A stretch of DNA of 64,000 nucleotides from a virus. Below, piece after piece: positions 31,898 through 63,905 of this stretch (position 1 is its first letter; each line of letters opens with the position of its first letter). The stretch covers positions 1 through 64,000 of the IMG/VR virus record IMGVR_UViG_3300037511_000125; one strand, 5' to 3'. The notes beneath the pieces were generated by a model, which was not told the origin of the DNA, did not search any database, and worked only from the letters and a program-made list of their open reading frames with translations. A program made the position numbers and the translations under genes.

Positions 31898-32262
31898 CCA
31901 CCGAAACCAAGCCTCTGTCCTGCATCGTCATCAAAGACCTTGGGCGCTACAACTTCGCATCCAACGAGAAGCAATGGAACGTTCAGGTTCTCATGCCTGA
32001 CGGCAAGTGGCTATCCGAGAAGTGGAATGAAGACGACGAACCCGCAATCGAAGGGGAGCCGCCGAGCGAAGTCATTGCGATGATTGAGGCGAGGATCAAG
32101 TCCTATTGGATTTGCACGCGACGCGAAGAAACACTGGCCCGCATCGAAAGCTTCCGCCACATGTTCCCGCAAATGGATGACGCATGGGCGCGCAAGCAGA
32201 TCGAATCGCTTGAGTGGCGGATTTCGTCGCTGCGGGATTATCTGATTGAGGAAGAAGAATGA
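31894..32262 (+). CDS. hypothetical protein
   Basis: 122-aa coupled ORF. Confidence 0.55.
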   Translation: MTTETKPLSCIVIKDLGRYNFASNEKQWNVQVLMPDGKWLSEKWNEDDEPAIEGEPPSEVIAMIEARIKSYWICTRREETLARIESFRHMFPQMDDAWARKQIESLEWRISSLRDYLIEEEE

Positions 32263-33278: not shown

Positions 33279-33931
33279 TCCTTATCGAGGCGATCCAGGG
33301 CACCCAGGAATGGTTGCAGGCTCGAAGTGGCGTGATTACCGCGTCGCGCATCTCCGACGCAATCTCGGTGCTTCAACGGAAATCAGGCTCAAAGAATCCG
33401 GGCGATCCGACAAACGAGTCGGATAAGTATGCGTACGAGGTCGCTTTTGAGCGCATCAGCGGTGTCCCCTATGCTGCGCCCATCAAAGCATTCACACTCG
33501 AGCGTGGGCACACCTTGGAGCCCGTCGCGCGGATGCTGTACGAGGAACGCACCGGCAATCTCGCAATGGAGTCGGGCATCGTTCTGTCCGACGACCGAAA
33601 GTTCGGGTACTCAACGGACGGGTTCCTGAACGACGATCGCGGCATCATCGAAATCAAATGCCCGGTTGATACGGTCAAGATCATGGACATGCTTACGACT
33701 GGCGACACGTCGGAGTACGACCATCAGATCCAGTTCGGACTTTTCCTGACTGGCCGCGCTTACTGCGATTTCATCCAGTACGTGCCGGCACTCGAATCCG
33801 TTGGCCGCGACCTCTACGTCAAGCGCATTGAACGCAATGAGGAGTTTATCGAGGACATGGTTGCCAAGGTTCTCACGTTCGAAAAGCGCGTGACTGCATA
33901 CGAAACGTTGCTGCGAAAGCAAGCCGCCTAA
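33275..33931 (+). CDS. YqaJ/lambda-Exo-like 5'-3' exonuclease
   Basis: GTQEWLQARSGVITASRISDA... and ...IIEIKCP... are PD-(D/E)XK motifs. Coupled to recT. Confidence 0.8.
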   Translation: MILIEAIQGTQEWLQARSGVITASRISDAISVLQRKSGSKNPGDPTNESDKYAYEVAFERISGVPYAAPIKAFTLERGHTLEPVARMLYEERTGNLAMESGIVLSDDRKFGYSTDGFLNDDRGIIEIKCPVDTVKIMDMLTTGDTSEYDHQIQFGLFLTGRAYCDFIQYVPALESVGRDLYVKRIERNEEFIEDMVAKVLTFEKRVTAYETLLRKQAA

Positions 33932-34043
33932 GCCCTCGCCGCTGCCCGCACGGATTGGCTCAGTAGAGCGTGTTCCCGCGCGTATCAAATAGGCAGCGGC
34001 ACCCAATCCCCTAGTCGTACGGTGGTCCCGTACGGCGCTCTTA

Positions 34044-34068
34044 GGCCCGGAAGCTCGGGCCGTTTTTT
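34044..34068 (+). terminator. rho-independent terminator
   Basis: GGCCCG-gaagct-CGGGCC followed by GTTTTTT. Confidence 0.75.
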
Positions 34069-34111
34069 ATTCGTGAATCGTGGCGTGTTTGCTGCGATAT
34101 AGGAGAGAGAA

Positions 34112-34396
34112 GTGGACTTGAGCGAAGCATTCGATAAGTTCGACGACGAGTACATCAAGTTTGAGCGTGTCGAGAACAAGCTGAGCAGTCGACCCGATAT
34201 TCACGCGTTCATCCTGCTCAACCAGTTGCAGCCCGGCACAAGAGACCTGGTAAGCGCCGCCGAACACGACGAAATCTATCTCGACATCGACGTTGATAAG
34301 TTGGCGGAAGTCATCACCGAGGATCAAGTTCGCGACCTCGCGCGTTGCGGTGTTCGGTATGACGATGGGTTGGATTGCTTGGCGATGTTTGTTTAA
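34112..34396 (+). CDS. hypothetical acidic protein
   Basis: 94-aa ORF. Confidence 0.55.
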   Translation: MDLSEAFDKFDDEYIKFERVENKLSSRPDIHAFILLNQLQPGTRDLVSAAEHDEIYLDIDVDKLAEVITEDQVRDLARCGVRYDDGLDCLAMFV

Positions 34397-34434
34397 CCAC
34401 CCTACGGCCACCGGCCGGTACAGGAATAGAGATC

Positions 34435-34731
34435 ATGAGCAACGCATATACGCCAGGCCCATGGAAGTGGACGCGGACACTTGACGGTCTGAATGCACTC
34501 GAAAGTGATTCGATCGCATACGGAATTCTCGTTTGCGCAGAAGACAACGCGCCGCAAGACCTGAACGACGAAGCTAACGCTCGCCTGATCGCCGCCGCGC
34601 CCGATCTGCTCGAAGCGATCCTAGCGCTCGATGATCTCCGAGGCGCATGGGCTCCGCCTGAGGAAACAATCAAAGCGGCATGGTCGAAAGCGCGCGCCGC
34701 AATCGCGAAAGCAACCGGCGTCACACCCTAA
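34435..34731 (+). CDS. Ea22-C-terminal-like protein
   Basis: MSNAYTPGPWKW...NARLIAAAPDLLEAI... is a common phage motif. Confidence 0.55.
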   Translation: MSNAYTPGPWKWTRTLDGLNALESDSIAYGILVCAEDNAPQDLNDEANARLIAAAPDLLEAILALDDLRGAWAPPEETIKAAWSKARAAIAKATGVTP

Positions 34732-34766
34732 CCCTCGCCTATTCGGCCAATTGTGATCTTGAGGAT

Positions 34767-35624
34767 ATGAATGAGCTGGCATTGTTCGCAGGCGCTGGTG
34801 GCGGGATTCTTGGCGGCCACTTGCTCGGATGGCGCACAGTCTGCGCCGTCGAATACAACGCCTATGCCCGAAGCGTATTACTGGCCCGACAAAACGACGG
34901 AACATTCCCGCCTTTCCCGATTTGGGATGATGTCCGAAGCTTTGACGGTCGACCGTGGCGAGGCTTTGTTGACGTGGTTTCTGGCGGGTTCCCGTGCCAA
35001 GACATCAGCGCAGCTGGACGCGGGGACGGTCTCGACGGTGAGCGAAGCGGGCTCTGGACGGAAATGGCTCGGATTATTGGCGAGGTTCGACCGCGATACG
35101 CGTACATGGAGAACTCCCCAATCCTCACTTCTAGAGGGCTCGGACGAGTTCTCGGAGACCTGGCCGCGATGGGGTTCGATGCGGAATGGGGAGTCTTGGG
35201 AGCGGCAGACTTTGGCGCCCATCACCAGCGAGATCGAATCTGGATTCTGGCCCACTCCGAACTGCGTAGGGTATCGGAGCGACGGGGAACTGCTGCTTCT
35301 GTCTCGCAAGTTGACTTCGCGCGAGGAGTATCTAGCGATGTCGGATCGGGCCTGCAACAGCAAGCGGGAACGGTTCTGGCCTACCCCGACCGTCGCAATG
35401 TCGAAGGGATCGAGCGAGGGCGCCCTGACACGCAAGACGGGGCGCAGCCGAGAGAACGACAGACTGGACTACGCAGTCGAGGGGAATGGCCGGAATGGCC
35501 GACTGAACCCGGAATGGATCGAGTGGTTAATGGGTTGGCCCATCGGGTGGACCGAATTAAAGCCCTTGGAAACGGCCAGGTACCGAGAGTGGCTGCAGCA
35601 GCATTCGATCTGCTCTCGCGCTGA
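34767..35624 (+). CDS. DNA (cytosine-5) methyltransferase, frame A
   Basis: Motif I LFAGAGGG, IV GGFPCQDIS, VI ENSP, VIII QRDRIWILA, X RIKALGNGQVP. The middle about 95 aa look low-quality (Arg-rich, low GC3). Confidence 0.75.
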   Translation: MNELALFAGAGGGILGGHLLGWRTVCAVEYNAYARSVLLARQNDGTFPPFPIWDDVRSFDGRPWRGFVDVVSGGFPCQDISAAGRGDGLDGERSGLWTEMARIIGEVRPRYAYMENSPILTSRGLGRVLGDLAAMGFDAEWGVLGAADFGAHHQRDRIWILAHSELRRVSERRGTAASVSQVDFARGVSSDVGSGLQQQAGTVLAYPDRRNVEGIERGRPDTQDGAQPRERQTGLRSRGEWPEWPTEPGMDRVVNGLAHRVDRIKALGNGQVPRVAAAAFDLLSR

Positions 35625-35901: not shown

Positions 35902-36996
35902 ATGGAAATCGTCAAGACATTGAAGTTGCGTATCAAGGACAAGCACGCCACGGCGTTGCTTGCGATGGCTCGCGACGTCAATACTGTCTGGAATTTCTGC
36001 AACGAAACGCAATACCGCAGCCTGAGACGATACTGCAATCGACCCAAAACATGGTTGTCAGGCTTTGATCTCGAGAAGCTTGTTTCAGGGTTTGTGAAGT
36101 GCGAGAGTGTTTCAATCGGCTCATCCACAGCGCAAGAGACTTGCCAACAGTTTGCAAGGCGTCTAAGGCAGTTCAAGCGCCAGAAACTTCGGTGGCGCGT
36201 AAGTGATCGTCAGTCGCCCAGATATTCGCTTGGGTGGGTGCCGTTCAAGGCAACTGCCATCAAGTTCAAAAATGGGCAGTTGCACCTCAATGGAAAGAGC
36301 ATCGGCCTTTGGGATTCATATGGCCTTTCCAAGTATGAGCTTCGCGCCGGCAGCTTCAACGAAGACTCGCGCGGTCGCTGGTACGTGAACATCGCGGTCA
36401 AGGAAAAGGCCGCAGAGAAGCGTGTACCGGATGGCGCGACTTCGATCGGAATCGACCTCGGCCTTAAGACGATGGCGACATACAGCGACGGCACGAAGTT
36501 CGAAATGCCGCGCTGGTATCGACTCTCCGAACAGACGCTCGGAATCGCCCAGCGGGCGAACAAGAAACGCCGCGTTAAGGCTATCCACGCGAAGATCGCG
36601 AATCAGCGCAAGGACGCCATCCACAAGGAAACGTCCGCACTGGTGAAGAAGCATGCAGCAATCTTCGTAGGGAACGTGAACGCGAAAGCGCTGGCGAGAA
36701 CGAGCATGGCGAAATCCGTGCACGACGCCGCATGGACGATGTTCCGGACACAACTCAAGTTCAAGGCCATCAGGCATTGCGTGGTGTTCGAGGAAGTCAA
36801 CGAAGCGTTTTCATCCCAAACCTGTTCGAGTTGCGGAGCTTTGCCCGACTCGCGGCCGAGAGGTATCGCAGGACTTGGAATAAGAGAGTGGGCGTGCAGC
36901 GACTGTGGAGCGGTCCATGACCGGGATACAAACGCCGCACGAAACATTCTCCGCTTGGGGCATCAAGCGCTAGCGGTAGGAGCCTCGCACGTCTAG
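35902..36996 (+). CDS. tnpB: TnpB (RuvC-like RNA-guided nuclease, OrfB_IS605)
   Basis: ...IGIDLGLK... (RuvC-I), ...FEEVNEAFSSQTCSSCGALP...WACSDCGAVHDRDTNAARNI (zinc finger plus RuvC-III). Confidence 0.85.
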   Translation: MEIVKTLKLRIKDKHATALLAMARDVNTVWNFCNETQYRSLRRYCNRPKTWLSGFDLEKLVSGFVKCESVSIGSSTAQETCQQFARRLRQFKRQKLRWRVSDRQSPRYSLGWVPFKATAIKFKNGQLHLNGKSIGLWDSYGLSKYELRAGSFNEDSRGRWYVNIAVKEKAAEKRVPDGATSIGIDLGLKTMATYSDGTKFEMPRWYRLSEQTLGIAQRANKKRRVKAIHAKIANQRKDAIHKETSALVKKHAAIFVGNVNAKALARTSMAKSVHDAAWTMFRTQLKFKAIRHCVVFEEVNEAFSSQTCSSCGALPDSRPRGIAGLGIREWACSDCGAVHDRDTNAARNILRLGHQALAVGASHV

Positions 36997-41089: not shown

Positions 41090-41593
41090 ATGCCGCGCGC
41101 CGCACCGAATGACGGATTAACGACAAAGCAAAGATATTTCAAAAAGATGAGCGATGCAGCGCCAACAATTCTCTGCGCATGCGGGTGTGGCGGGTCGCTT
41201 AAGTCAGTCGATGCCTATGGCCGCCCCGCAACGTTCATCAATGGCCACAACGCGCGAAAGTACGAGGGCGAAGAATCGACCAAGTGGGCAGCCCAGAAGC
41301 GATACCGCACGAACAATCCCGATAAGCATCGGGACTACAAGCGTGAATATTATCGCGCTCGGAAACTTAAGGCGATGGAACTTCTGGGTAACAAATGTGA
41401 GTTGTGCGGAATCCCGTATAACGGGACTAACGCCCCCATTTTCGAATTTCATCATAGAAACCCGCACGAAAAAGAAGCTGGCGTTACCAGAATGCTAACC
41501 AATAAGGCTTGGGAGCAGGTCGTTCTGGAAATGACGAAATGCATTCTTGTGTGCGCCAATTGCCACAATCAACATCACGGAGGTGAGTGGTGA
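41090..41593 (+). CDS. HNH endonuclease
   Basis: ...CELCGIPY...FEFHHRNPHEK...LVCANCHNQHH. The upstream region is AT-rich. Confidence 0.8.
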   Translation: MPRAAPNDGLTTKQRYFKKMSDAAPTILCACGCGGSLKSVDAYGRPATFINGHNARKYEGEESTKWAAQKRYRTNNPDKHRDYKREYYRARKLKAMELLGNKCELCGIPYNGTNAPIFEFHHRNPHEKEAGVTRMLTNKAWEQVVLEMTKCILVCANCHNQHHGGEW

Positions 41594-42774
41594 AGCAGGT
41601 TATCAAGGAAGATGGGGCATCGCCCATCAAAATCTGGACCGATGACGTTGAGCAGAGCGCATTGGCCCAATTGAAGAGCATTGCCGGTCTGCCGTTTGTA
41701 TCGAAGCATGGCGTCGCAGTTATGCCTGACGTCCATGCCGGAATTGGGTCAACCGTTGGAAGCGTCGTGGCCACGGAAAAGGCAATCGTGCCTTCGATGG
41801 TCGGCGTGGACATCGGGTGCGGGATGAACGCCGTTCGCCTGTCGCTGAAGGCGTCCGAACTCCCCGACGATCTGAAGACGATCCGCCATCAGATTGAGCG
41901 AGACGTTCCGCTTGGAACGGGTGGGGCGCATCGCGACGACCGACAACCCGACATCCCTGTAGATCTGGCGGCGCGCTACACGCATATCGTCGATCAGCAC
42001 GCCGGGATTCTCAATAAGAACATGAACCGCCAGCTCGGCACATTGGGTAGCGGCAATCACTTCATCGAACTGTGCATCGACGAGGCGCAGGACGTTTGGG
42101 TGATGCTTCACAGTGGTTCGCGCGGCGTTGGCAATCTGATTGGCCGATACTTCATCGAGAAGGCGAAAAAGCGGATGGAGCAATACTTCATCAGCCTGCC
42201 GGATGGCGACTTGGCCTACTTCCCCGAAGACACCGACGATTTCCGCGATTACGTGAAGGCGGTGAACTGGGCGCAGGACTATGCGCTCGAAAACCGCCGC
42301 GTGATGATGGAAGCGGTGATCGCGGCGCTACGCCGACATATCCCCGTCGAATTCACAATTACTCAAGAGGCGATCAACTGCCATCACAACTACGTCGAGC
42401 GTGAAAACCACTTCGGCAAAAATCTCTGGGTGACGCGCAAGGGTGCAATTCGCGCTCGTGAAGGCGACCTTGGCATCATCCCGGGTTCGATGGGTCAACG
42501 CTCATACATCGTGCGCGGCAAGGGCAATCTGGAGTCGTACTGCTCATGTTCGCACGGGGCCGGTCGAAAGATGAGCCGTGCCGAGGCACGTCGTCGATTC
42601 CAGTTGTCCGATCTTGTCGCGCAGACTGAAGGCGTTGAGTGCCGCAAGGATGATGCGGTGCTGGACGAGATCCCCGGCGCGTACAAGCAGATTGACGAGG
42701 TGATGGCGAATCAGACGGACTTGGTTGAGGTCGTTCACGTCCTAAAGCAGTGCCTCTGCGTCAAGGGAGCCTGA
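41587..42774 (+). CDS. rtcB: RtcB RNA ligase (3'-phosphate/5'-OH)
   Basis: ...VGVDIGCGM..., ...LGSGNHFIELC..., ...HSGSRGVGN..., ...NCHHNY..., ...SCSHGAGR... are canonical RtcB metal/GMP motifs. Confidence 0.9.
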   Translation: MVKQVIKEDGASPIKIWTDDVEQSALAQLKSIAGLPFVSKHGVAVMPDVHAGIGSTVGSVVATEKAIVPSMVGVDIGCGMNAVRLSLKASELPDDLKTIRHQIERDVPLGTGGAHRDDRQPDIPVDLAARYTHIVDQHAGILNKNMNRQLGTLGSGNHFIELCIDEAQDVWVMLHSGSRGVGNLIGRYFIEKAKKRMEQYFISLPDGDLAYFPEDTDDFRDYVKAVNWAQDYALENRRVMMEAVIAALRRHIPVEFTITQEAINCHHNYVERENHFGKNLWVTRKGAIRAREGDLGIIPGSMGQRSYIVRGKGNLESYCSCSHGAGRKMSRAEARRRFQLSDLVAQTEGVECRKDDAVLDEIPGAYKQIDEVMANQTDLVEVVHVLKQCLCVKGA

Positions 42775-43453: not shown

Positions 43454-43661
43454 TTCAATGTTTCTCGATGACGATGCACTGACGGAGTTGACAGGCAAGC
43501 GCCGCAATTCCGCACGCGTCCGCGTCCTCAATACAATGGGCGTGCACCACAAGATCCGGCCCGATGGTTCGGTGGCCGTGCTGCGCGCCCATGTCGATCG
43601 ATTATTTGGCGAGAAAGCCGCCAAGTCTAAAATGGAGACTTGGCAACCCGCCTGGAGCTGA
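43443..43661 (+). CDS. xis: excisionase-like protein (DUF4224-type)
   Basis: ...LDDDALTELTGKRRNSARVRVLNTMGVHHKIRPDGSVAV... sits directly upstream of int. Confidence 0.6.
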   Translation: MMNDSMFLDDDALTELTGKRRNSARVRVLNTMGVHHKIRPDGSVAVLRAHVDRLFGEKAAKSKMETWQPAWS

Positions 43662-43663
43662 GA

Positions 43664-44725
43664 ATGCCACGCCCACGAAACAAGGAAAACAACGGGCTGC
43701 CGAAGCGCTGGAAACTGCATCACGGGGCGTACTACTACCTTGTCCCGATTGGGTTGGAAGCCGCGTGGGACGGCAAGAAGAAGTTCAGGCTTGGCGCGAC
43801 GTTACCCGAAGCATACGCAGTGTGGGCGGAGCGGGTAGGGCGGCTGGACAAAATCCGCAATGTTGGCCAGCTTCTCGAACAGTACGCAATGGAAGTCATC
43901 CCGACGAAAGCCCCGAGCACGCAGACGCAGAACACCGCCGCACTGAAACCCCTTCTCGAGCATTTCGCACCAGCGCCATTGAACGGGCTGGAGCCGACCG
44001 TGATTTATGCCTATCTCCGCAAACGCGGCAAGGAAGGCTCGAAGACAGGCGCGAAACGGGAGGTAGAGGTACTGTCTCACGCGCTCACGAAGGCTATCGA
44101 GTGGGGCTACATCAAGGCTCACCCGTTCGCGTGGCAGATGCGAATCGAAGGTGATGCGCCGCGCGATCGGTACGTCGAGGACTGGGAGCTGGAGGAATGC
44201 CTTTCTTTGAAGTCGCGTCGGAAGAAGGGCAGCGTCCAGGCGGCGCAAGCCTACATCCGAATCAAGCGCATCACCGGAATGGCTCGCGGCGACTTGCTCC
44301 GGCTGAAACCCGGCGAATTCACCGACGAGGGTATTCCGATCCAGCGCCGCAAGACCGCGAAGAAGACCGGCAAGCGGACTTTGTACCTGTGGACTGACGA
44401 GTTGCGCGCAGCGGTTGCGGACGCCATCGCGGCCCGACCTGTCGATATTTCACCTTGGCTGTTCTGCACGCTGAAGGGCGAATGCTATATCGACGAGAAG
44501 ACGGGCAGAGCAGGCGGATGGGAATCGCTGTGGCGCGGATTCATGGCTCGCGTGATGAAGGAAACAAAGGTGAAAGAGCGATTCACCGAACACGACATTC
44601 GAGCCAAGACGGCCAGTGACGCGGATAGTCTTGAACACGCACAAGCGCTTTTGTCGCATGCCGACAGCCGAACGACGAACCGCGTTTACAGACGGAAGGC
44701 GGAGCGCGTAAAACCGCTGCGGTAA
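43664..44725 (+). CDS. int: tyrosine integrase
   Basis: ATG 43664 (MPRPRNKENNGLPKRWKLHHGAYYY...). C-terminal catalytic region ...HDIRAKTASD...LSHADSRTTNRVYRR. Confidence 0.9.
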   Translation: MPRPRNKENNGLPKRWKLHHGAYYYLVPIGLEAAWDGKKKFRLGATLPEAYAVWAERVGRLDKIRNVGQLLEQYAMEVIPTKAPSTQTQNTAALKPLLEHFAPAPLNGLEPTVIYAYLRKRGKEGSKTGAKREVEVLSHALTKAIEWGYIKAHPFAWQMRIEGDAPRDRYVEDWELEECLSLKSRRKKGSVQAAQAYIRIKRITGMARGDLLRLKPGEFTDEGIPIQRRKTAKKTGKRTLYLWTDELRAAVADAIAARPVDISPWLFCTLKGECYIDEKTGRAGGWESLWRGFMARVMKETKVKERFTEHDIRAKTASDADSLEHAQALLSHADSRTTNRVYRRKAERVKPLR

Positions 44726-50812: not shown

Positions 50813-50881
50813 GCACGCAACAGGGCGGCCTACCGGCAACCCGCCAACTCCGAAAGGAAGATTCGATGATCTACTATTTTC

Positions 50882-51208
50882 GTGCGCGCTCGCGCCGCCC
50901 TGGATCTTTTAATGCGATACAAAGCACCGTCGACGGAAGACCTGGCGCGACTCAAGGAACAGCTCGGATATACCGGTTCCCGGATGGCCGCATTGTTCGG
51001 CGTGTCGGACGACAATCAATTCCGGAAATATACGGGCGGCAAGGAGCCGCGGAAGGTCAACGCGCAAATGCTGTTCTTTGCTATGGCGCGTTTGGTGCTC
51101 AAGCAAAAGGACATCGAGACGGTATTGGAAAAGATGCGCGAGGTCGGAGCGGACATCGACCTGGACGCGCCATCCACTTCCCGGGCTTCAACTGGCGAAC
51201 CGGAGTAG
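50882..51208 (+). CDS. HTH-type regulator
   Basis: ...LGYTGSRMAALFGVSDDNQFRKYTGG... Start uncertain (GTG 50882 or ATG 50912). Confidence 0.5.
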   Translation: MRARAALDLLMRYKAPSTEDLARLKEQLGYTGSRMAALFGVSDDNQFRKYTGGKEPRKVNAQMLFFAMARLVLKQKDIETVLEKMREVGADIDLDAPSTSRASTGEPE

Positions 51209-51369
51209 TCGCCGCAGCGCTTCTTCTTTCGGCCTGTGGCGGCAACAATCCCAATCCTACGTCTGCTGTAGTGGCGGCATCACCTGTTGCGTTGAGGGGT
51301 GGGACATCTGAACCACCGGTTGTTTCATGCACGACAGAAGCTAGTCGATAGCACGATACATTATGCGGA

Positions 51370-52632
51370 ATGACGCTAAAAAAGAAAGGTCCTAGTAATA
51401 AAATACTAGTATCGTCGATGCTAGGAGATTCTATTGTGAAAAATAAAACATCCGTGGTTGTTGTTATACCGTTTTACAACGGGAGCAAATGGATCGAGCG
51501 GGCCGCGAAGAGCGTATCCGAGCAAACGATCAGTCCGGACGAATTCATTGTTGTTAATGACGGATCAAACGATGCGGAACGGGAAGCTCTGACTCCCATG
51601 GCATCCCAATACGGATTTCGAATCATTGACAAACAGAATGGCGGTCAGGGATCTGCTCGCAATGCTGGCGTCTGGGCATCAACGTCCGAATACATATCAT
51701 TTCTGGATCAGGACGATTACTACCTGCCGCATCACATCGAGGATCTTGTCGAAGCGCTACCGTCCAATGACAGGAGATTGGGTTTCGTATATGCGGACCT
51801 CTGCGAAGGTGATGAGGAGGGCAGGATCGTTCACTCGAATCTGCTGCATCAAATAAAGCACGTCTCACACCCCAAAAAAGGCCATATCGGTGAATTGATT
51901 CGGAACGACCTCTTCATATTGCCATCCGCCTCTCTGATCAAGCGCAGTGCATTTGAGGAGGTTGGCGGGTTCGATCCTCAATTTATGGGATATGAGGACG
52001 ATGATCTTTTTCTGCGGATGTTCCGATCCGGCTTCACCAACTATTTTATAGATAAGCCAGTGACGGTATGGTGCACCCATACTGGCTCCACGTCGTGGAG
52101 CATAAAAATGTCACGCAGTCGCTACAAATATTTCAGAAAACTGACCGAAAACTACCCTGATGATGTCCATAAGGCTCAGTTTTTCATGAGGGACAGTATT
52201 GCGCCACGCTTCGAGCCTGACTTCGTTCGCGAGGCGATCCATGCCTCCAGGAAAAAGCCTGAGCACGCGAAAGAGTATATCGATATTCTTGCCGGGTTCG
52301 TCGGTATCGTCACGGCTAATGATGCCGTCGATGACGAATTCAAGAGGCATCTTCGCCGTTCGTTGTCAGTTGCCAGGGGGGAGGAAATTTCGGTTGAGGA
52401 CTACGGCAAATTCCAGCGCTCGCTCTACGATTGCTATCGGTCCACCTCGTGGAAAATCAGCTCGCCCTTGCGTCTTGCAGCAAAAACACTCACCGGGAAA
52501 CGGTTCATCAGGGATTCGATACCATCGGATGAAAGTGAGGCGATGGATCGATTTATTAGGCTAAGGCGCTCGGTTTCGTGGAGACTAACCGCTCCCGTCA
52601 GATTTGCCAAACGAGCAATCAAAAATGTTTAG
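51370..52632 (+). CDS. family 2 glycosyltransferase
   Basis: VVVIPFYNGSKWIERAAKSVSEQT...VVNDGSND...LDQDDYY (DXD). Visibly lower GC than the flanks. Confidence 0.85.
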   Translation: MTLKKKGPSNKILVSSMLGDSIVKNKTSVVVVIPFYNGSKWIERAAKSVSEQTISPDEFIVVNDGSNDAEREALTPMASQYGFRIIDKQNGGQGSARNAGVWASTSEYISFLDQDDYYLPHHIEDLVEALPSNDRRLGFVYADLCEGDEEGRIVHSNLLHQIKHVSHPKKGHIGELIRNDLFILPSASLIKRSAFEEVGGFDPQFMGYEDDDLFLRMFRSGFTNYFIDKPVTVWCTHTGSTSWSIKMSRSRYKYFRKLTENYPDDVHKAQFFMRDSIAPRFEPDFVREAIHASRKKPEHAKEYIDILAGFVGIVTANDAVDDEFKRHLRRSLSVARGEEISVEDYGKFQRSLYDCYRSTSWKISSPLRLAAKTLTGKRFIRDSIPSDESEAMDRFIRLRRSVSWRLTAPVRFAKRAIKNV

Positions 52633-52891
52633 GGCACAAATGCTAAGACTCGCCAGAATGATCAAGGAACTTGGTGGAACCGTATCTATACGCTTCCACG
52701 AGGGTATTTACGATGCATCCTGCGACGGGGTGCTTCATTACGGCATGACCCCAGAGGGGGCCGTATGGAATGTCCTCAACCAAAAGCGAAGAGCGCGGAA
52801 TCGTGCAGCGCCCACTGAGGCGCGCGAATACCGCGTTAGTCGCTTCTATCAGGTCATTGTCGGGGAAATTCCATCGGCCGGCCAAGGGTGA
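52625..52891 (+). CDS. possible small ORF downstream of GT2
   Basis: MFRAQMLRLARMIKELGG... overlaps the GT2 stop. Weak. Confidence 0.3.
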   Translation: MFRAQMLRLARMIKELGGTVSIRFHEGIYDASCDGVLHYGMTPEGAVWNVLNQKRRARNRAAPTEAREYRVSRFYQVIVGEIPSAGQG

Positions 52892-54688
52892 TCAAGGCAC
52901 CGCCATGCCGGAAGTATTGCTTGTGCCTTGGTCTACGACCGGCGTCGTGCATGTAAGCGCGTTGCCGAGGTTCACGTTCCCGCTAGATCCAGTCTGATAC
53001 CAGATGCACGTCGTCAACCCTCCGATCTGGTTCTGCCCGATCGTAAACTTTCCACCCGCATTGGAGCCCAGGACAATGCCGTTGGTGCCTGTGTTTGCGC
53101 TGTCATCTTTGTTTATGTTGTTCCCGGTGATAGAGCCGCTTGCAGTCGGGCTGATGAAAATAGCGGACGTGTTCGTATGCACAAAGATGTCGTTATGATG
53201 GATCATAACGTTGCCAACGAGACTGTTGATCGATATCTCGTTACCAGAATTTGCGAATTGTGAATCCGATATCTGGAGTTGCGACAATTCACCGGTCGAG
53301 CTGGGCGGAACAAGGAAACCCGTGAAATCGTTCTGAAAATTTGATTGGGTGATTGTCATCCCCTGGCAGAACGATCCATACACCACGCCAGTTCCCAGAT
53401 TATTAAAAACCGATTTGGAAATATTGACGTATATCGCGTACTGGCTGCCATTTCCCTGACAGACCAGACCGGCGCCAGTCGCGGTGGAATTTGCTCCAGC
53501 GCCATAAACGGTAACACTCTCGACATTTACATTGTCCTGACCGTTGATCAGGATTGCATCTGTCCAGAAATGAGATCCGCCGCCCCCGCCATTGTCCGAT
53601 CCTCTAAGCGTGACATTGTAGATGTCACTGCCCGCGAATTGATTCAGAGAACTGGTTTGGGTGAGCAGAATTCCGGAAAAACCTCCGTTTTGACCAGTCG
53701 TAACAGTCATGTCCCTGATATGGGCCGAACTGCCAGGCGCATTGCTAGTAACTACAATGCCGTTATTGGCATTCGGAAAATTCAGGGTGGTTACGTCCTG
53801 ACCGGATCCCCGGATCATGATTGAGGATGGGGCTGTCGGATTGGTGTATGAAGCCGCCGAACTGAATTTATATGTGCCCGGAGGGAAGTCCACGCAAACG
53901 GACCCCGTGGGATTGGCCGCAATTGTCGCAAGGAAAGCCGCGCTGTTGTCGTTCGTGTTGGTGTTGTCGCCCCCATGATCCATGATGGACGGGCAAACGA
54001 GGCTTTTTGCAACATATGCCGTCGTCGCAACTGAGGTGTTATTGGCCCCGCGACTCGCTGTCGGCGCAACCGGGCTTCCCGTAAAGGTTGGCGATGCCAG
54101 CGGCGCGTATGTGCTGGCGGCATTACCTCCGAGCGACGATGCATTGATGGCGGTGTTGCAGCCGAACCCGCTTCCACTCGTCCATTGCAGCGCGCTAGAT
54201 GCGGTGCTGCAGCTCGGGACCGAGGCCGCTACAGGGATTGCGGAAGAAGCTGACGTATTGGCAACAACAGTATTTGCACTTTGGGCGGCCAGATCGCCAA
54301 TCGAGAAAAGTCCCGTAGCGGTAAGCGAGCCCGTGACCGTCAGATTCGAGATGGTAGGAGATGCGCCAAGAACGATGCCACCTGAACCCGTGACCGCCTG
54401 GCCAAGCGCGGATGCTACACCCGTACCCAATCCAGCGAGGCCGGCGACAGGAAGCCCCGTCGCGTTGGTCAGAGTGATTGCCGAGGGCGTCCCAAGGTTA
54501 GGAGTAACCAGCGTAGGTGAATTCGACAGGACAGCCGAACCCGATCCGGTCGAAGTCGTCGCGCCCGTTCCACCATTCGCCGCGCTAAGCGGATTCTGGA
54601 GCGTGAGGCTATTGAACGTGGGAGACGGGAAAGTCTGGGCGAGCGCCACCACCGGCACCAGCAGTGCCGCGAGAATCAGTTTCTTCAT
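52892..54688 (-). CDS. tailspike / tail fibre with a right-handed beta-helix (pectate-lyase-like) domain
   Basis: N-terminal fibre-like Gly/Thr repeats. The C-terminal half has repeated ...N.T...G... rungs. The N-terminus MKKLILAALLVPVVALAQ looks like a signal peptide. Confidence 0.7.
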   Translation of the reverse strand: MKKLILAALLVPVVALAQTFPSPTFNSLTLQNPLSAANGGTGATTSTGSGSAVLSNSPTLVTPNLGTPSAITLTNATGLPVAGLAGLGTGVASALGQAVTGSGGIVLGASPTISNLTVTGSLTATGLFSIGDLAAQSANTVVANTSASSAIPVAASVPSCSTASSALQWTSGSGFGCNTAINASSLGGNAASTYAPLASPTFTGSPVAPTASRGANNTSVATTAYVAKSLVCPSIMDHGGDNTNTNDNSAAFLATIAANPTGSVCVDFPPGTYKFSSAASYTNPTAPSSIMIRGSGQDVTTLNFPNANNGIVVTSNAPGSSAHIRDMTVTTGQNGGFSGILLTQTSSLNQFAGSDIYNVTLRGSDNGGGGGSHFWTDAILINGQDNVNVESVTVYGAGANSTATGAGLVCQGNGSQYAIYVNISKSVFNNLGTGVVYGSFCQGMTITQSNFQNDFTGFLVPPSSTGELSQLQISDSQFANSGNEISINSLVGNVMIHHNDIFVHTNTSAIFISPTASGSITGNNINKDDSANTGTNGIVLGSNAGGKFTIGQNQIGGLTTCIWYQTGSSGNVNLGNALTCTTPVVDQGTSNTSGMAVP

Positions 54689-56840: not shown

Positions 56841-58259
56841 TTAGCCTTGATGGACGGTAACGCCGGCCGCCGAGCATGTGAACGCGCTTTCAGGATCACT
56901 CGGAATGATGCTCGTGCCCGCAGTAGGGGAGGCCGGCACTCCGTTGATGGTTACGGCGAACTCCAGTGTCGTGATGTTCTGCGGAGCGATCACCGATGAG
57001 ACTGCGCTCTGAAACGCTGCCGTCATTTCAAGTTCGTTAATCGGCTGACCGACAAAGATGCTATTGATGTAGTTCTGTATCGCTGGAGCCGCCAGTTGCG
57101 CGACGGACGTGCCGCCAGTGAAACTCGGCAGCGTCGTATTCCACGTCACGTCCACAGTCACGATCTGCTGCGGCGGATTGACGAACGTGATTGAATAGGT
57201 ATCCGGATTCTGGAACAGCGAGACAGAGACGTTCCGCGGATTCGGAGACAACGTTGCTCCGCTCACATACGAACCAAAGGCAGAACCGTTCGTCGTCGTC
57301 GTAATTGTGGTGGCCGTGACTGATGCCACGGTGTAAGTCAGGTTGTACGCGGATGGGGTTGCCCCGGTTACCGTGAACGTCTGCCCCGCGATATAGCCGT
57401 GATTGAGGTTGGTTGTGATGACGACCGGATTCGCCGCCGTCATCGCGGTAATGGCGAGTTGCGAACCCTGAAGTACGGCAATGTCCGGAACGCCTTGCAG
57501 AATTGCAGTCGCCACCGAGAATGCATCGCCACCACCGCACACAATCTGCCAGCCGCCGGGCAATTGATTGATCGATACGAGTCGCGCCTGAACGCCAGTG
57601 ATTTTCTCGAGAAGCGTCCGGACGTATGCTGGCGTTCCAGTCGATGCAACCTGTCCAGCCTGAAGCACTCGCGCCCTGTAGTCCTGAACGCTTTCGCTTG
57701 TTGTTGCTGGAGTTCCCGCCTCGGGGTTATTGACGGTGACGTTATAGGCGCTCGGAACCGAGGTAACGATCTGTGTAACCGTATCAGCGGGGATAGCAAA
57801 CGTGCCGCTGTTCGTCGCGACGGCGAAGAGCTGCGGACTGAACCCGCTTGTCTCGATTACACCGCCGTCCTGAAGAGCGTATTGATTCGTACCATCAGAT
57901 ACAAGGAATCCCGGCTGGAATACGTATCCCGCAGGGCCTGCGAACTGGACAAATACGCTACCATTGGCGCCGACACCCTGCGGAATTCCAGCCTGTGCGC
58001 CGAGTTGGGCGAGCAGAAATGCATTAGCTCCATAGGGCGTAACACTGTTGACGGCCTCAACGCGCGCCTGATCGATCGCTACCAGCGCGCCAACGTCCGT
58101 ACCGCTGATGTCATCAATCAGGCCTGCTGGCAGCACCGTATAACCTGGGGACTGCGTGGAGACGTAGTTAATCAGGTTCGCATAGAGCGTTGCCGGCGGC
58201 GTCGTCACCGGGCCAGATGCCGTCATGACCAACGGGATGGACGTGGGGGAAATGGTCAT
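56841..58259 (-). CDS. baseplate J-like protein
   Basis: 472 aa. The call rests on position and size in the Mu-like baseplate order. Confidence 0.65.
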   Translation of the reverse strand: MTISPTSIPLVMTASGPVTTPPATLYANLINYVSTQSPGYTVLPAGLIDDISGTDVGALVAIDQARVEAVNSVTPYGANAFLLAQLGAQAGIPQGVGANGSVFVQFAGPAGYVFQPGFLVSDGTNQYALQDGGVIETSGFSPQLFAVATNSGTFAIPADTVTQIVTSVPSAYNVTVNNPEAGTPATTSESVQDYRARVLQAGQVASTGTPAYVRTLLEKITGVQARLVSINQLPGGWQIVCGGGDAFSVATAILQGVPDIAVLQGSQLAITAMTAANPVVITTNLNHGYIAGQTFTVTGATPSAYNLTYTVASVTATTITTTTNGSAFGSYVSGATLSPNPRNVSVSLFQNPDTYSITFVNPPQQIVTVDVTWNTTLPSFTGGTSVAQLAAPAIQNYINSIFVGQPINELEMTAAFQSAVSSVIAPQNITTLEFAVTINGVPASPTAGTSIIPSDPESAFTCSAAGVTVHQG

Positions 58260-58603
58260 GTCGCAATGGTTTGATTGATGATTGCACCGCTATGGCACAC
58301 GGCATTTACTTGGTAGACGGGCGGGAAAGAGGCGGGGACTCGCGTGATCGTCAACGACGCGAAATACTGTGCGAAGTACTGCTGTATCTGCGTTACATAG
58401 AAGTCCGGGAAAACCTGGGTCACGATCGTTTGCATCTGCGGGATGCCAACATTCGCGAAAAATGGCGATTCTCCGAGATTCAGTTTCAGCGCCTGAACCA
58501 GAGTAGTCAGATAAATGTTGTCGAGGAATCCGTTTGCATCTGGCGTTACCTCAATCCACTGGTATGTGCCGTCTTCGTTAAAAGCTCTTCCCCACGTTCT
58601 CAT
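58256..58603 (-). CDS. small baseplate protein (gp25/W-like position)
   Basis: 115 aa, coupled to the J-like gene. Confidence 0.5.
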   Translation of the reverse strand: MRTWGRAFNEDGTYQWIEVTPDANGFLDNIYLTTLVQALKLNLGESPFFANVGIPQMQTIVTQVFPDFYVTQIQQYFAQYFASLTITRVPASFPPVYQVNAVCHSGAIINQTIAT

Positions 58604-58618
58604 TTAAGTGACCTATGT

Positions 58619-59272
58619 ATGTCAGAGACATATCCACCAAGCTTTTTCGCGCACGAATCCCTCGCGAAACTTTCTCGCGAATATCTGGTTATCGTGCTGT
58701 TCGTAAAAAGCCGATCGGACGCGTTTCCGTGGGCGTTTGAGGTGGCGAGCAGGGCAACTCTGTTTGTCGAGCGCGATCTGCAATCAATGAAGGTGTATGT
58801 CGCCGCCTTTATCGCCACCTTTGAAGGGGCGACACAGGCAATGGATTTGATCCACTACGTTCGAGGCTGGAAAGGCACACACTTTTACGCGCAAGGGCGC
58901 ATGGTTATCGGAGAAATGGAGCAGGCTTTTCATCTCGAGGCTGTCTTGCGATGCTTCGCCGACTCATGCGCCACTCGGGACTACCGTGCGCATTGCTTCC
59001 GCCTCATCGACAATCCATTTGAGCCATTAGCTCCATACCGCAACTTCGATCACGTCGCGCCGTATTTCAGGCACTACGAGGCTAAGGCGGATAACGGGAC
59101 ATACGTTTTCCCTTGTCGCCACATGCTCAAATGGTTTCGAGCACAGGAAGACCATCCGGCATCCATACCGGACCAGATTCAGGCGGAAGGCGTCGAGAAG
59201 TACTGCGATGTCTGCCCGCGATTCGAACCCGATGATTTCGGGGTGACCATCATTAAAAGGAAACTGAAGTGA
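58619..59272 (+). CDS. unknown cytoplasmic protein, first gene of the antisense cassette in the baseplate operon
   Basis: I start it at ATG 58619 (MSETYPPSFFAHESL...), because the 5' part of the track ORF is antisense to 58256-58603. Lower GC. Cys/His-rich C-terminal half. Confidence 0.55.
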   Translation: MSETYPPSFFAHESLAKLSREYLVIVLFVKSRSDAFPWAFEVASRATLFVERDLQSMKVYVAAFIATFEGATQAMDLIHYVRGWKGTHFYAQGRMVIGEMEQAFHLEAVLRCFADSCATRDYRAHCFRLIDNPFEPLAPYRNFDHVAPYFRHYEAKADNGTYVFPCRHMLKWFRAQEDHPASIPDQIQAEGVEKYCDVCPRFEPDDFGVTIIKRKLK

Positions 59273-59607
59273 ATCGAATTCTCATCCCGGCCATAGTCGG
59301 TCTGATTTCCATCAATGCACACGCCGTCGATCTGGCTGGAATTCCGCAGAACTGCCAGGCACCCTTGGCACACGACATGGAAATGGAGAACATCCCCTAC
59401 CTTCTCGATCTCGGGCAGAACGCGGCGCGCATCACCCTGATCGAAACAATAGGTGGGACGCCGGCCTACCAGTACGCGCCGGGCCAGTATCGGATTGATT
59501 GCTTCATCACCGTCCACTGGAGCAACGGGGTGACTGATTACGGCTTCAAATTCAGCATGTGGCAGGATCGGTACGGCCAGCTAAAGGGAACCTACTCCCA
59601 GCATTAA
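59269..59607 (+). CDS. small secreted protein, second gene of the cassette
   Basis: The GTG overlaps the upstream TGA (GTGA). Signal peptide MNRILIPAIVGLISINAHA. Confidence 0.55.
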   Translation: MNRILIPAIVGLISINAHAVDLAGIPQNCQAPLAHDMEMENIPYLLDLGQNAARITLIETIGGTPAYQYAPGQYRIDCFITVHWSNGVTDYGFKFSMWQDRYGQLKGTYSQH

Positions 59608-60317
59608 GGAGTAACTGGACCGCCCGTGTCCGTCTCGGGATTGCTACCCGGAATGTACGGGTGAACGTGATCCTCGAACACAACGCCATTGCCCATCGTT
59701 GCACCGGCAGCACCAAATGTGAACGTCTTCCCGCCCGCGGTAATGGTCACGCCATCAGCATTAAGCATCAGCGAAGTCACTCCGCCGAAGTTGAGCAATA
59801 TCTGCGTCTCTTCGACTACCGCAGTATTGGAGCCGAATGTCGCCGTCGTCCCGGACTGGTTCGTTACGACCGATGATGTTGTGCCTTGCGTCGTTCTGCT
59901 GATAACACCATTGGGGCCTTGAATCTGGGCGGCATTCTGGTCGATCGGACCCGAACCGGAGTTGCTGACCGGCACGAAAACAAGTGCCGTCAGGTTGGCG
60001 CGTTGCGTCAGCGTTGCCGTCCCGCCACCCAGGCCGGAAACTCCGCCGAGATACGTGTCAGCGGGCATCGTGACGCCCTTATCGCCCACCTGGGTCGGCA
60101 TCCGTATCCACGGGCTTTCTGCCTTGGGGATCGTGATGTTCGGCAGCGCCTGAACTGAATCGCTCACTTCGAATGCGACCGTTACGATTGAGCCCGACAC
60201 GCTCACTACCCGACATGGAAGCGCGCGACCGAGTTTCTGAATCGCCTGCTGCGCCCGATTGATTGCAAGCTGGTTCGCGCTCTTCTGCACCCATAGCTTG
60301 TCGTAGTTATCGGCCAT
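59604..60317 (-). CDS. baseplate central spike / gpV-like (Mu gp45-like)
   Basis: N-terminal OB-like ...LPCRVVSVSGSIVTVAFEV... and a C-terminal beta-helical Gly/Thr repeat. Confidence 0.6.
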   Translation of the reverse strand: MADNYDKLWVQKSANQLAINRAQQAIQKLGRALPCRVVSVSGSIVTVAFEVSDSVQALPNITIPKAESPWIRMPTQVGDKGVTMPADTYLGGVSGLGGGTATLTQRANLTALVFVPVSNSGSGPIDQNAAQIQGPNGVISRTTQGTTSSVVTNQSGTTATFGSNTAVVEETQILLNFGGVTSLMLNADGVTITAGGKTFTFGAAGATMGNGVVFEDHVHPYIPGSNPETDTGGPVTP

Positions 60318-61269
60318 TTGGATTCAGGATGCAGTTAGCGATCGTCACCCATTGAGACGCGTCAGGTGCGCGGAAATTGCCGACCTGTCGCAACTCCTGG
60401 ACGATGAAGTTGTTCTGGAATGTCGTCTGATACTTGATACTCGATGGATACGCTGATTGGGTCGTCGTCACGAAGCCGGGGAGGTTTTGAAGCCCTTGCG
60501 GCATCCGGACAATGCTACCCATTTGCAGATCCGCTCTTGCCACCATCTTGATCTGGATGGTGTTGACGCCGATCCACGTCGGTTGGCCTATGAAATCCGT
60601 GAAGACGAGTTGTATCGGGGCGGGGGAAAATGACTTGTCGAATACGACGATCTTTCCAGCCTGAATACCGATCGTCACCCGACTATCGAAAATGCCTTCG
60701 GTAATGTCCCCGACCACTTGCGCCAACTGGTCAAGCGTGTCGTAGACGCCGATCTCGTCATGATTCTGCACAAGATCATTGCTGATGTTCATCTCGATCG
60801 GCATATTGGGATATGCAACATCGAGTGTTTGAAGCAGCGCGTCGGACAGTTGCGCCCCGGCGCGCCAGTTCAGCACGAAATTCCCCGGATTGTCGATCGT
60901 GAACGTGCCCGGCAAGACAACAAAGTCAAGGCTCTGATCGACGCCTTCCCAGTTGCCGAACGCCTGAAACACCATGCCTTTCAAGATGGTTCCGGCCTGT
61001 GCCGGATTGACCAATGGAAGGCCGGCGCGCATCCCCGCCTTCAGTTCAAGCGTCATCCCGGCGAACTGCTGAGGCTGCGTCAGATCCTGTAGCGCTATAC
61101 CGCGGACCTTGATTGTCGATGCCCCTGTGGGCGTTCCATACGGGCCGACCAGAGCATCGTATTCAATCTGCAGCGCCGCAGGATCGATGATGTTATTCGG
61201 ATGACTCGTCCACGTCCGGATTGGCGTCGTGCTTCCGGCTGGCGTTAGGGTCAAGGAATAAAATCGCAT
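60307..61269 (-). CDS. baseplate hub-like structural protein
   Basis: 320 aa; called from its position in the Mu-like order. Confidence 0.5.
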   Translation of the reverse strand: MRFYSLTLTPAGSTTPIRTWTSHPNNIIDPAALQIEYDALVGPYGTPTGASTIKVRGIALQDLTQPQQFAGMTLELKAGMRAGLPLVNPAQAGTILKGMVFQAFGNWEGVDQSLDFVVLPGTFTIDNPGNFVLNWRAGAQLSDALLQTLDVAYPNMPIEMNISNDLVQNHDEIGVYDTLDQLAQVVGDITEGIFDSRVTIGIQAGKIVVFDKSFSPAPIQLVFTDFIGQPTWIGVNTIQIKMVARADLQMGSIVRMPQGLQNLPGFVTTTQSAYPSSIKYQTTFQNNFIVQELRQVGNFRAPDASQWVTIANCILNPNGR

Positions 61270-62288: not shown

Positions 62289-63905
62289 TCAATGAGGTGC
62301 GGCGTTCATCGACGTTGCCACATTCGCTGTCGTCGAGTTGGTGATGTTGATGTTGACGCTCTGGCCTTGGCGAGCCAGCAGCGCCATGATCTTGTTGATA
62401 TACGGCTGGGTTTCCGACGAAGGAGAATGCGATTCCCAGTTATCTCCATATTTGGAAATGGCCTTATCAACGTTCCCCATGCCCCAGTTATACGCGGCGA
62501 GGGCTTTTCGCACATCCCCGCCATATCGCTTCAGAAGAAAAGTGTCATATCGTCTCGCTGCATCCATTGAATCTTGTAAATTGTTGACATCTCCATGACC
62601 CCATTCTTTCCACGTATCGGGCATGAATTGCAACGGTCCAAGTGCGCCTTTGGGTGATTTGAGATTTTTCCCTCGGTTTGACTCGACCGTATATTGGGCA
62701 TCGACAAGTGCCCCCAATGGGTCAGCAGAAGGCGAAGATGAATCGGATCCGAGTAAATTTCTATCGATCCAATTGCCCACCTTTGTTCCGTGCATCCAGT
62801 CGACAAGGGCATCAAGTTTGGTGTAGTTTTTCGAACCCTTGGGGGTTGGCTGCCCGGTGGTTATTTCGTGGACGACTGGCGTTACTTCCTTATCGATGAA
62901 CTTTGCAAGTGCAATTGCCGCTTTACTGGCTGCATCGCCGAGTACCACAAGATCCGGGCCAGCCTTCGCCAAGCTCTCATTGAACGTGTTCAGCACCTTC
63001 GCCCAATCGGACTGCAGCGCCGCTTTCACATCGGATGCCTGATCCGCCGTACCCTGATTGATCTCGTTCGCCTTGGCATCTGCCAACGTCTTATTTTGTG
63101 CCGCAACCCACTTTGCATCAGGCTGACTTTGCATTGCATTCAGTTGCTGAATGCTATAGAAGTCCGTAAAGCCATATGCCTTCGCCATAGATGCTGCCGG
63201 CATACCAGACTGCTTCCAGCCACGATATTTTGTGGCCGCTGCCCGTGCAAAATCGTACGTCAGTTGTTCGGCGTCTTCGTTCTGGATTTGCTGTGGAGTC
63301 AGGCCGGCCGCGATAAACGCGCGCCAGCGAGATACATCACCCTGCGCATTTGCAACGTTGCCAAGATCGGAAGTCCCAAGACCGAAGCGTTCGAAATTCG
63401 CGTCAAATGCCTGCGTCTGACCAATACGAAGGCCAAGCCCTCGCGCCTGGACATTCTGCCCCGCAACAGTGCTGGTTGCGCCATATACGGCACCAAGAGC
63501 AGACCCTACACCGCCGACGCCGACTGTCCCCAACTTGAGCAAAATCGTGCTCATGCTGACGATGGACTTCTGCATCGCAGCGGACGCTTTTTGCATCCGC
63601 GTCATCTGGATCGCGCCGTCCTTGGCCTTGACGTTGAACTTATCCTGAACGCCAGTCGCGCGGTACATCGCTTTCGAGATCGCGTCGGCCTGAATGGCCG
63701 CGATCATCAGGAAGTCTTTCGAATGTTTCGAAGACTCCGAAAACCCCTCCATGCCCTCACCGGCATCATCGATAACGTCGATGACCTTGGCCCAGTCCTC
63801 GGGCATGTCCTTGAGCTTTTTTTGGTACTCCGAGAATTCCTTGTGGAAGGCTGCAAATTTGCCGTCCGGATCGATGTCGATTTGGATAACGCTCTTCGTC
63901 GTCAT
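62289..63905 (-). CDS. tape-measure-like virion protein with a lytic transglycosylase (SLT) domain
   Basis: ...QYTVESNRGKNLKSPKGALGPLQFMPDTWKEWG... is an SLT motif with catalytic Glu. The N-terminus is a helical Ala/Lys-rich region. Confidence 0.7.
   Translation of the reverse strand: MTTKSVIQIDIDPDGKFAAFHKEFSEYQKKLKDMPEDWAKVIDVIDDAGEGMEGFSESSKHSKDFLMIAAIQADAISKAMYRATGVQDKFNVKAKDGAIQMTRMQKASAAMQKSIVSMSTILLKLGTVGVGGVGSALGAVYGATSTVAGQNVQARGLGLRIGQTQAFDANFERFGLGTSDLGNVANAQGDVSRWRAFIAAGLTPQQIQNEDAEQLTYDFARAAATKYRGWKQSGMPAASMAKAYGFTDFYSIQQLNAMQSQPDAKWVAAQNKTLADAKANEINQGTADQASDVKAALQSDWAKVLNTFNESLAKAGPDLVVLGDAASKAAIALAKFIDKEVTPVVHEITTGQPTPKGSKNYTKLDALVDWMHGTKVGNWIDRNLLGSDSSSPSADPLGALVDAQYTVESNRGKNLKSPKGALGPLQFMPDTWKEWGHGDVNNLQDSMDAARRYDTFLLKRYGGDVRKALAAYNWGMGNVDKAISKYGDNWESHSPSSETQPYINKIMALLARQGQSVNINITNSTTANVATSMNAAPH

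Follow-up and report, generated by a model that had tools for sequence, protein, structure and literature searches.

Classical morons, as defined in HK97 and HK022, are extra genes of phage late operons that some close relatives have and others lack at the same position; the virion can do without them, and many are for envelope proteins (bor and lom of lambda, gp15 of HK97). In phage P22 an island of sieA, orf59a and mnt, which includes an envelope protein for superinfection exclusion, is expressed in the lysogen, lies antisense between late genes 16 and 9 and is crossed by late transcription; SieA is an inner-membrane protein. The repressor gene cI of lambda is followed by rexA and rexB, for a cytoplasmic protein and a membrane protein, an order that is expressed in the lysogen, and other phages encode periplasmic inhibitors of incoming tail lysozymes (T4 Sp; LprI, Ivy and MliC types). 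Here we analyse a 1-kb insert in the tail module of a virus record, IMGVR_UViG_3300037511_000125, of which positions 1 to 64,000 were used (the window, 64,000 nucleotides; coordinates refer to it unless a related locus is named). The insert holds two plus-strand open reading frames (ORFs), ORF1 and ORF2, between two minus-strand baseplate genes, one in the position of the central spike (237 amino acids, aa; hereafter the spike gene) and one in the gp25/gpW position (the 115-aa gene; Table 1). It is read, with a probability of roughly 0.6, as a lysogenic-conversion ('moron') cassette that is expressed by the lysogen and probably protects it against superinfecting phages. The definition of a moron is restated in PMC5567305, and Cumby et al. 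(2012) is cited in PMC10269795.

The cassette resembles the P22 island in lying antisense in a late operon. It differs from that island in that no Mnt/Arc or Ant gene and no predicted promoter or terminator is present, ORF1 has no counterpart in P22, and the insertion site is the spike/gp25-position junction of a myovirus whereas P22 is a podovirus. ORF2, by contrast with SieA, is predicted to be a soluble periplasmic protein. From the lambda arrangement the cassette differs in being detached from any repressor. ORF1 showed no relationship to RexA (hhalign probability 0.1%), and for the most part its partners are soluble periplasmic proteins or lipoproteins rather than polytopic channels; ORF2 itself has only a cleavable signal peptide.

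A variable insertion site between two baseplate genes

Related loci (designated by L numbers) were gathered through the 115-aa protein, homologues of ORF1 and ORF2, and degenerate DNA patterns, and the baseplate proteins of the window were mapped onto them. This yielded 63 non-redundant related spike/115-aa junctions. No insert was present at 21 of these, where the distance from the spike stop to the 115-aa start was -4 to +8 bp, often as an ATGA overlap. Direct translational coupling of the spike gene to the 115-aa gene is clearly the ancestral state. The remaining 42 junctions carried inserts of 231-1463 bp, nearly all of them antisense. ORF1 and ORF2 occurred together at 13 junctions. ORF1 was combined with a 61-aa protein with two transmembrane segments at nine junctions and with a secreted protein of a separate family (family B) at five, and had no classified partner at six (five with ORF1 alone, the sixth with a lipoprotein and a small transmembrane protein). 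ORF2 was found without ORF1 at two. Seven junctions contained other cargo, namely three unrelated secreted proteins, a sense-strand HNH-like ORF, a transposase-like fragment and, in two cases, sense-strand ORFs. Where present, ORF1 was always antisense and always the neighbour of the 115-aa gene, whose start lay 11-25 bp away. ORF2 was limited to Paraburkholderia prophages and always located at the spike/115-aa junction.

The spike/115-aa junction is therefore a moron hotspot with variable cargo, and the synteny of related phages bears out the variable site suspected in the original prediction. As is usual for morons, the genes are present in some close relatives and absent from others at the same locus. 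Because one third of the junctions (21/63) are insert-free and others hold differing cargo, the pair cannot be a set of structural genes conserved in all relatives; the cassette genes are non-structural and dispensable for the virion. The two are not an obligate cytoplasmic-plus-periplasmic pair, which argues against the toxin/immunity module offered as one option in the original prediction. ORF1 was found without ORF2 in 20 junction types and ORF2 without ORF1 in two, so that the genes assort independently and an obligate toxin/immunity or sensor/effector pair is unlikely. The cassette consists of two independently assorting cargo genes, carried between the central-spike and gp25/gpW-position genes in temperate Burkholderiaceae phages with contractile tails that appear to form one family.

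The HNH-like endonuclease ORF of L034 (4493-4999, sense strand) and the transposase-like fragment of L036 (4422-4952) indicate that the junction draws selfish elements as well as morons. In the antisense insert of L028, an ORF2 homologue is adjoined by a small transmembrane protein and by a 53-aa ORF that looks like a ribbon-helix-helix protein by eye (MKRLNFFLPEQVIAALQALSDKTGLTVSEHIRRAIDAYL), and that may be the remnant of an Arc/Mnt-type regulator at the hotspot.

The two genes and their products

ORF1 and ORF2 are real genes under strong purifying selection. Close homologues numbered 99 for ORF1 and 34 for ORF2, and all came from Paraburkholderia/Burkholderia genomes and soil metagenomes. 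The ratio of nonsynonymous to synonymous substitution rates (dN/dS), taken against the closest relative, was 0.040 for ORF1 and 0.092 for ORF2, comparably low to the flanking genes in the same comparison (0.069 for the 115-aa gene and 0.079 for the spike gene). The synonymous rate was uneven between adjacent genes (58256-60317 versus L113/L013), with dS values of 0.33 for the spike gene, 0.89 for ORF1, 1.03 for ORF2 and 1.40 for the 115-aa gene. Such sharp differences between neighbouring genes point to recombination breakpoints around the cassette.

ORF1 is predicted to be cytoplasmic; it has no hydrophobic segment (maximum Kyte-Doolittle-19 value 1.05) and an isoelectric point (pI) of 6.5. 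Its sole match in scans of Pfam, PHROGs, PADLOC and NCBIfam was phrog_16260 (E 9.1e-38, residues 13-207 against positions 15-209 of 213 profile positions), a family of uncharacterised function. A profile search of 1.84 billion representatives placed about 400 clusters, counted at 50% identity, in the ORF1 family (400 at E<=1e-3, 290 at E<=1e-10), and almost all of the top matches listed were single-domain proteins of about 200-230 aa. Family-wide invariant residues are F28, C112, C126, P165-C166 and C199-P200 (numbering of ORF1); H125 and H179 are near-invariant, and the conserved motifs are RAHC, FPC, HPSSxxDQIQA and CDxCP. The AlphaFold model (predicted local distance difference test, pLDDT, 84.8; predicted template modelling score, pTM, 0.81) has two domains, of which the N-terminal one is ferredoxin-like (residues 12-117) and the C-terminal one is rich in Cys and His. 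The sequence suggests a putative Cys4 structural metal site, probably for zinc. Foldseek searches of this model against the PDB and BFVD returned nothing below E 0.04, with TM scores of at most 0.3.

ORF2 is predicted to be a soluble periplasmic protein exported by the Sec pathway. Its signal peptide occupies residues 1-19 (59269-59325) and consists of MNR, a hydrophobic core and a cleavage site between AHA and VD. The mature protein of 93 aa contains two invariant cysteines (C29, C78). In the AlphaFold model (pLDDT 75.1) a helix is packed on a five-stranded sheet, and comparison of this model with the PDB by Foldseek gave only weak, non-significant NTF2/cystatin-like matches, none below E 0.04. 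The label DUF2790, which UniRef attaches to one ORF2 homologue alone (P0104), was rejected, as PF10976 was unmatched at E<=1 in 23 of 23 members of the ORF2 family. A remote-homology comparison of ORF2 with family B aligned the signal peptides alone.

Further searches were negative. Eighty diverse members of the ORF1 family had no match in Pfam or NCBIfam, ORF2 matched nothing in Pfam, PHROGs, PADLOC or NCBIfam, and no PDB relative of ORF1 or ORF2 was found by single-sequence or profile searches. No match was obtained by tblastn of ORF1 against plasmids or of ORF2 against phages, by Rfam, or when phage genomes were searched with the tail module by megablast. Literature searches returned no description of either family.

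Distant homologues of ORF1 in repressor operons

The ORF1 family is linked to repressor operons. About 23 distant loci had usable flanks, and in 13 of them a repressor gene lies immediately upstream of the ORF1 homologue (in L108 with one gene between); the stop of the repressor gene and the start of the homologue frequently overlap. The homologue directly follows a repressor with a helix-turn-helix (HTH) and Peptidase_S24 domain, or a repressor of the CI type, in L001, L087, L123, L138/L150, L143, L147, L148 and L153. It directly follows an Arc/Mnt-like ribbon-helix-helix (RHH) gene in L128, L136, L149 and L132 (Klebsiella phage ST899-OXA48phi17.1). In Bordetella avium phages it is found directly after a cI-type repressor, on the same strand. 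The Mu-like phage L108 (9062-12315) has, in this order, a cI/S24 repressor, a Zn-ribbon membrane protein, the ORF1-family protein and an Abi_alpha abortive-infection protein. The placement of distant homologues directly behind repressors supports expression from the prophage.

At least nine of the distant ORF1 homologues have behind them a gene for a lipoprotein, for a secreted protein or for a small membrane protein. Lipoproteins adjoin it in L087, L142, L146, L147 and L153, and secreted proteins in L128, L136 and L149 (in L149 at 1814-2155, behind the homologue). The resulting order of repressor, cytoplasmic protein and membrane or envelope protein is that of lambda cI-rexA-rexB. The Arc/Mnt gene of L132, L136 and L149 diverges from a pair of Arc and Bro-N/Ant antirepressor genes, and the whole unit is located inside a tail module. 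These Mnt/Arc and antirepressor units embedded in tail modules are the likeness to P22 immI; the Mnt/Arc and Ant genes typical of an immI/sieA-type region are absent from the window cassette and were found near the distant homologues in L128, L132, L136 and L149.

The secreted protein behind the ORF1 homologue of L136 (3684-4031) belongs to the LprI lysozyme-inhibitor family (E 1.2e-12), and its gene is convergent with that of a tape measure bearing a cell-wall hydrolase domain. The protein, which occupies the position equivalent to that of ORF2, may inhibit the tail lysozymes of incoming phages. ORF2 shares with phage-encoded inhibitors of this sort its small size, predicted Sec export and disulfide, and the tape measure of the prophage in the window carries an SLT lytic transglycosylase domain. 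Assignment of ORF2 itself to the LprI type was rejected, since ORF2 has no Pfam similarity (PF07007 was not matched) and hhalign against the LprI protein of L136 aligned the signal peptides only. For ORF2 the analogy may serve as a lead, not as a result.

ORF1 homologues also occupy a second baseplate junction. In L007, L101 and L144 the gene is located antisense between the plug and hub genes. L144 (4487-6641) has two antisense morons in one baseplate module, the ORF1-family gene at plug/hub and a gene for a 190-aa lipoprotein that separates the hub gene from the next one of the baseplate. Family B is found with ORF1 homologues at either baseplate junction, and the two genes stand in either order (L007 versus L091, L097 and L117).

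Function of the cassette and alternative explanations

We infer that both genes serve the lysogen rather than the virion, and that the lysogen most likely transcribes both from the strand opposite to that of the silent late operon. Protection against superinfecting phages would be exerted by ORF2 in the envelope or periplasm and by ORF1 in the cytoplasm, through exclusion or abortion of the incoming phage. Late transcription would in turn run antisense through the cassette.

Several observations weigh against this reading. A classical moron is expected to have its own promoter, its own terminator and a deviant GC content, and none of these three was found here. A consensus scan gave no sigma-70-like promoter in or around the cassette. 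No intrinsic terminator was detected, terminator-like sites being at chance level on both strands. The 15-bp spacer on one side and the overlapping stops on the other leave no room for either element, and synonymous sites at the 5' end of the 115-aa gene show no added constraint of the sort expected from an embedded promoter. In 11 of 31 relatives a sigma-70-like motif, TTGATA-N16-TAYGTT, lies opposite codons ~8-17 of the 115-aa gene, on its antisense strand; the version in the window (58520-58600) is degenerate (CTGGTA ... AAAGCT). The motif was rejected as a promoter because it reflects conserved Tyr-Gln and Thr-Tyr codons, and a position weight matrix scan of the 31 relatives did no better than shuffles (mean z about 0). 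The composition of the cassette is not foreign either. The visibly lower GC of the original prediction amounts to 0.539 against 0.553 for the remaining tail module, inside the gene-to-gene spread of 0.503-0.586, and GC at third codon positions is 0.62 and 0.72 in the two cassette genes versus 0.54-0.72 in the flanks. No fold or sequence relative with a known function was found for ORF1 or ORF2. Both were without a match in PADLOC-DB v2 at E<=1, and 80 members of the ORF1 family gave scattered matches at E>0.01 only. Finally, one distant ORF1 homologue is located in the nin region of a lambdoid contig, where it is transcribed with early lytic genes, so that expression in the lysogen is not universal across the family.

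For the ORF1 family as a whole, a tentative proposal can be made to which we give clearly less credence than to the moron reading of the cassette. The family may represent a widespread prophage function tied to lysogeny-maintenance promoters, either a new cytoplasmic anti-phage protein, acting in exclusion or abortive infection and commonly together with envelope proteins that vary, or a new accessory factor in the regulation of lysogeny. One of its habitats would then be the Burkholderiaceae hotspot.

The alternative that survives best, though we regard it as unlikely, is that the ORF1 family is part of lysogeny control and not cargo that protects the host, for example by pairing with the maintenance repressor or an antirepressor circuit or by modulating either. 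The copy in the window would then be a trans-acting regulator parked in a baseplate operon. Tight coupling to three unrelated repressor classes keeps this explanation alive, as the starts of ORF1 homologues overlap or abut the stops of three repressor types at no fewer than 12 independent loci, and four of the distant loci form P22 immI-like units with divergent Arc and Bro-N/Ant genes. The same variety of unrelated repressor classes argues against a specific protein partner. ORF1 lacks an HTH or RHH domain, its pI is near neutral, it matches no regulator family, and no regulator adjoins it in the 33 ORF1-bearing junction types at the spike/115-aa site or in the three at the hub/plug site. The name 'prophage repressor', given to one ORF1 homologue in GenBank, is unsubstantiated and unique among five cluster members.

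Less probable again is a single two-component system, in which ORF1 would be a cytoplasmic sensor or regulator and the exported or membrane protein encoded downstream an envelope effector, in the manner of Rex, or in which the two would form a toxin and its immunity protein. An exported or membrane gene does lie immediately downstream in 27 of the 33 ORF1-bearing junction types, in many cases with a stop that overlaps the next start; family B is encoded beside ORF1 homologues at two insertion sites and in either gene order, lipoproteins also follow distant homologues, and the order of cI, rexA and rexB is analogous. Set against this, ORF1 stands alone in five junction types and ORF2 is without ORF1 in two, the partner families are mutually unrelated, and there is no homology to RexA. 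Most partners are, moreover, soluble periplasmic proteins or lipoproteins, which would be unable to contact a cytoplasmic protein.

We consider it very improbable that ORF1 is a selfish, free-standing endonuclease of the homing type that targets the spike/115-aa junction, with the exported genes as hitch-hikers. The insertion exactly between two conserved, coupled essential genes would fit, as would the constant position of ORF1 at the same edge of the insert, the HNH-like and transposase-like ORFs at the same junction and the Cys/His-rich C-domain. Foldseek matches to I-CreI-type meganucleases were very weak (TM score 0.18) and non-significant, and no nuclease motif or family match was found in ORF1. 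Purifying selection is strong and long-term, the ORF1 clades are specific to each insertion site, and distant members reside inside repressor operons, not at homing-type junctions. No direct or inverted repeats flank the cassette to hint at an insertion mechanism.

Both genes might instead belong to the baseplate, as parts of the virion or of its assembly that happen to be encoded on the opposite strand; their tight packing inside the baseplate module and purifying selection equal to that of structural genes would fit. This reading is largely refuted by synteny, since the genes are absent from some related junctions, where the flanks are directly coupled, and are replaced by unrelated cargo at others. 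ORF1 homologues also occur in unrelated phages, within repressor operons and nin regions, and the Sec signal peptide of ORF2 is incompatible with cytoplasmic tail assembly.

Layout of the cassette and other features of the window

The features of the tail module are collected in Table 1. The plus-strand pair between minus-strand baseplate genes was described in the original prediction with coordinates and lengths that agree with the sequence, and the motifs FPCRHMLKW and CDVCP in ORF1, the GTGA coupling and Sec signal peptide of ORF2, and the distance of 15 bp between the divergent starts were likewise confirmed. In the GTGA the start of ORF2 overlaps the stop of ORF1, and AGGAAA is located 8 nt before the GTG. 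The spacer contains AGGTCA on the minus strand, the likely ribosome-binding site of the 115-aa gene. Across 31 related loci this spacer measures 11-25 bp, with a recurrent GACCT motif, which is the ribosome-binding site of the opposite-strand 115-aa gene and not that of ORF1; no canonical Shine-Dalgarno sequence for ORF1 was found in the 15 bp.

The 115-aa gene is placed at the sheath-initiator position by its location between the spike and Baseplate_J genes, and its hhalign match to a protein annotated Sheath_initiator was colinear and weak. The 237-aa gene had no Pfam, PHROG or PDB sequence match; its earlier name 'gpV-like' goes back to its position and the appearance of its sequence.

Table 1. 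Genes and junctions of the tail module around the cassette (window coordinates)
Feature	Position	Strand	Description
ORF1	58619-59272	+	217 aa, ATG start, TGA stop; ORF list and raw sequence
ORF2	59269-59607	+	112 aa, GTG start, TAA stop; ORF list and raw sequence
Divergent spacer	58604-58618	none	15 bp between the 115-aa gene start (58603) and the ORF1 start
115-aa baseplate gene, gp25/gpW (sheath-initiator) position	58256-58603	-	phrog_7986, E 7e-43
TTAA	59604-59607	none	ORF2 stop (TAA, +) overlaps the 237-aa gene stop (TAA, -)
237-aa gene, central-spike (gpV-like) position	59604-60317	-	label by position
Baseplate hub	60307-61269	-	phrog_196
Plug-like gene, 91 aa	61269-61544	-	weak Pam3_gp18 match
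248-aa gene	minus-strand run, between tape measure and plug-like gene	-	ORF list
SLT-domain tape measure	62289-63905	-	domain match
Baseplate_J/wedge gene	56841-58259	-	after the 115-aa gene
Fibre genes	down to 52892	-	after the Baseplate_J/wedge gene

A second opposite-strand block (50866-52891, +) is located right after the tail-fibre gene at 52892-54688 (-). It consists of a 161-aa ORF, a family-2 glycosyltransferase gene (51370-52632, +; Pfam E 8e-28, GC 0.489) and a 95-aa ORF, and its position mirrors that of gtrABC after the tailspike gene 9 of P22. In the relatives L002-L006, Lipase_GDSL and/or Acyl_transf_3 genes are found beside a Beta_helix tail gene in place of the glycosyltransferase block. 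The block is probably a conversion module that modifies surface polysaccharide.

The early region of the prophage has ordinary content at 32259-35624 (+), with RecT and YqaJ recombination genes and a C-5 cytosine DNA methylase. It also encodes a TnpB-like protein (35902-36996, +; OrfB_IS605 and a Cas12f1-like TNB domain). A full-length RtcB RNA ligase gene (41587-42774, +; Pfam E 2.6e-126) adjoins a weak integrase-like gene (43640-44725); RtcB may act in phage counter-defence against tRNA or RNA cleavage.

Implications

Islands of morons or lysogenic-conversion genes that lie antisense in a late operon are already known, and the cassette adds a member with two uncharacterised cargo families. 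Since accessory genes antisense in a late operon are textbook knowledge (P22 sieA/mnt), the view of prophages is unchanged. The junction of the spike gene with the gp25-position gene is a precise hotspot in soil Burkholderiaceae myoviruses. Its inserts encode at least six exported or membrane proteins that are unrelated to one another, and it therefore offers a compact catalogue of candidate superinfection-exclusion factors. The ORF1 family is worth following because it is large, has neither annotation nor fold relative, and keeps a conserved placement behind prophage repressors. Its syntax of repressor, ORF1-type protein and envelope protein spans Burkholderia, Bordetella, Klebsiella and many uncultured phages, and a lysogen-specific function is directly testable. 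Should ORF1 prove to act in defence or in lysogeny control, a function could be assigned to several hundred prophage genes now called 'hypothetical'.

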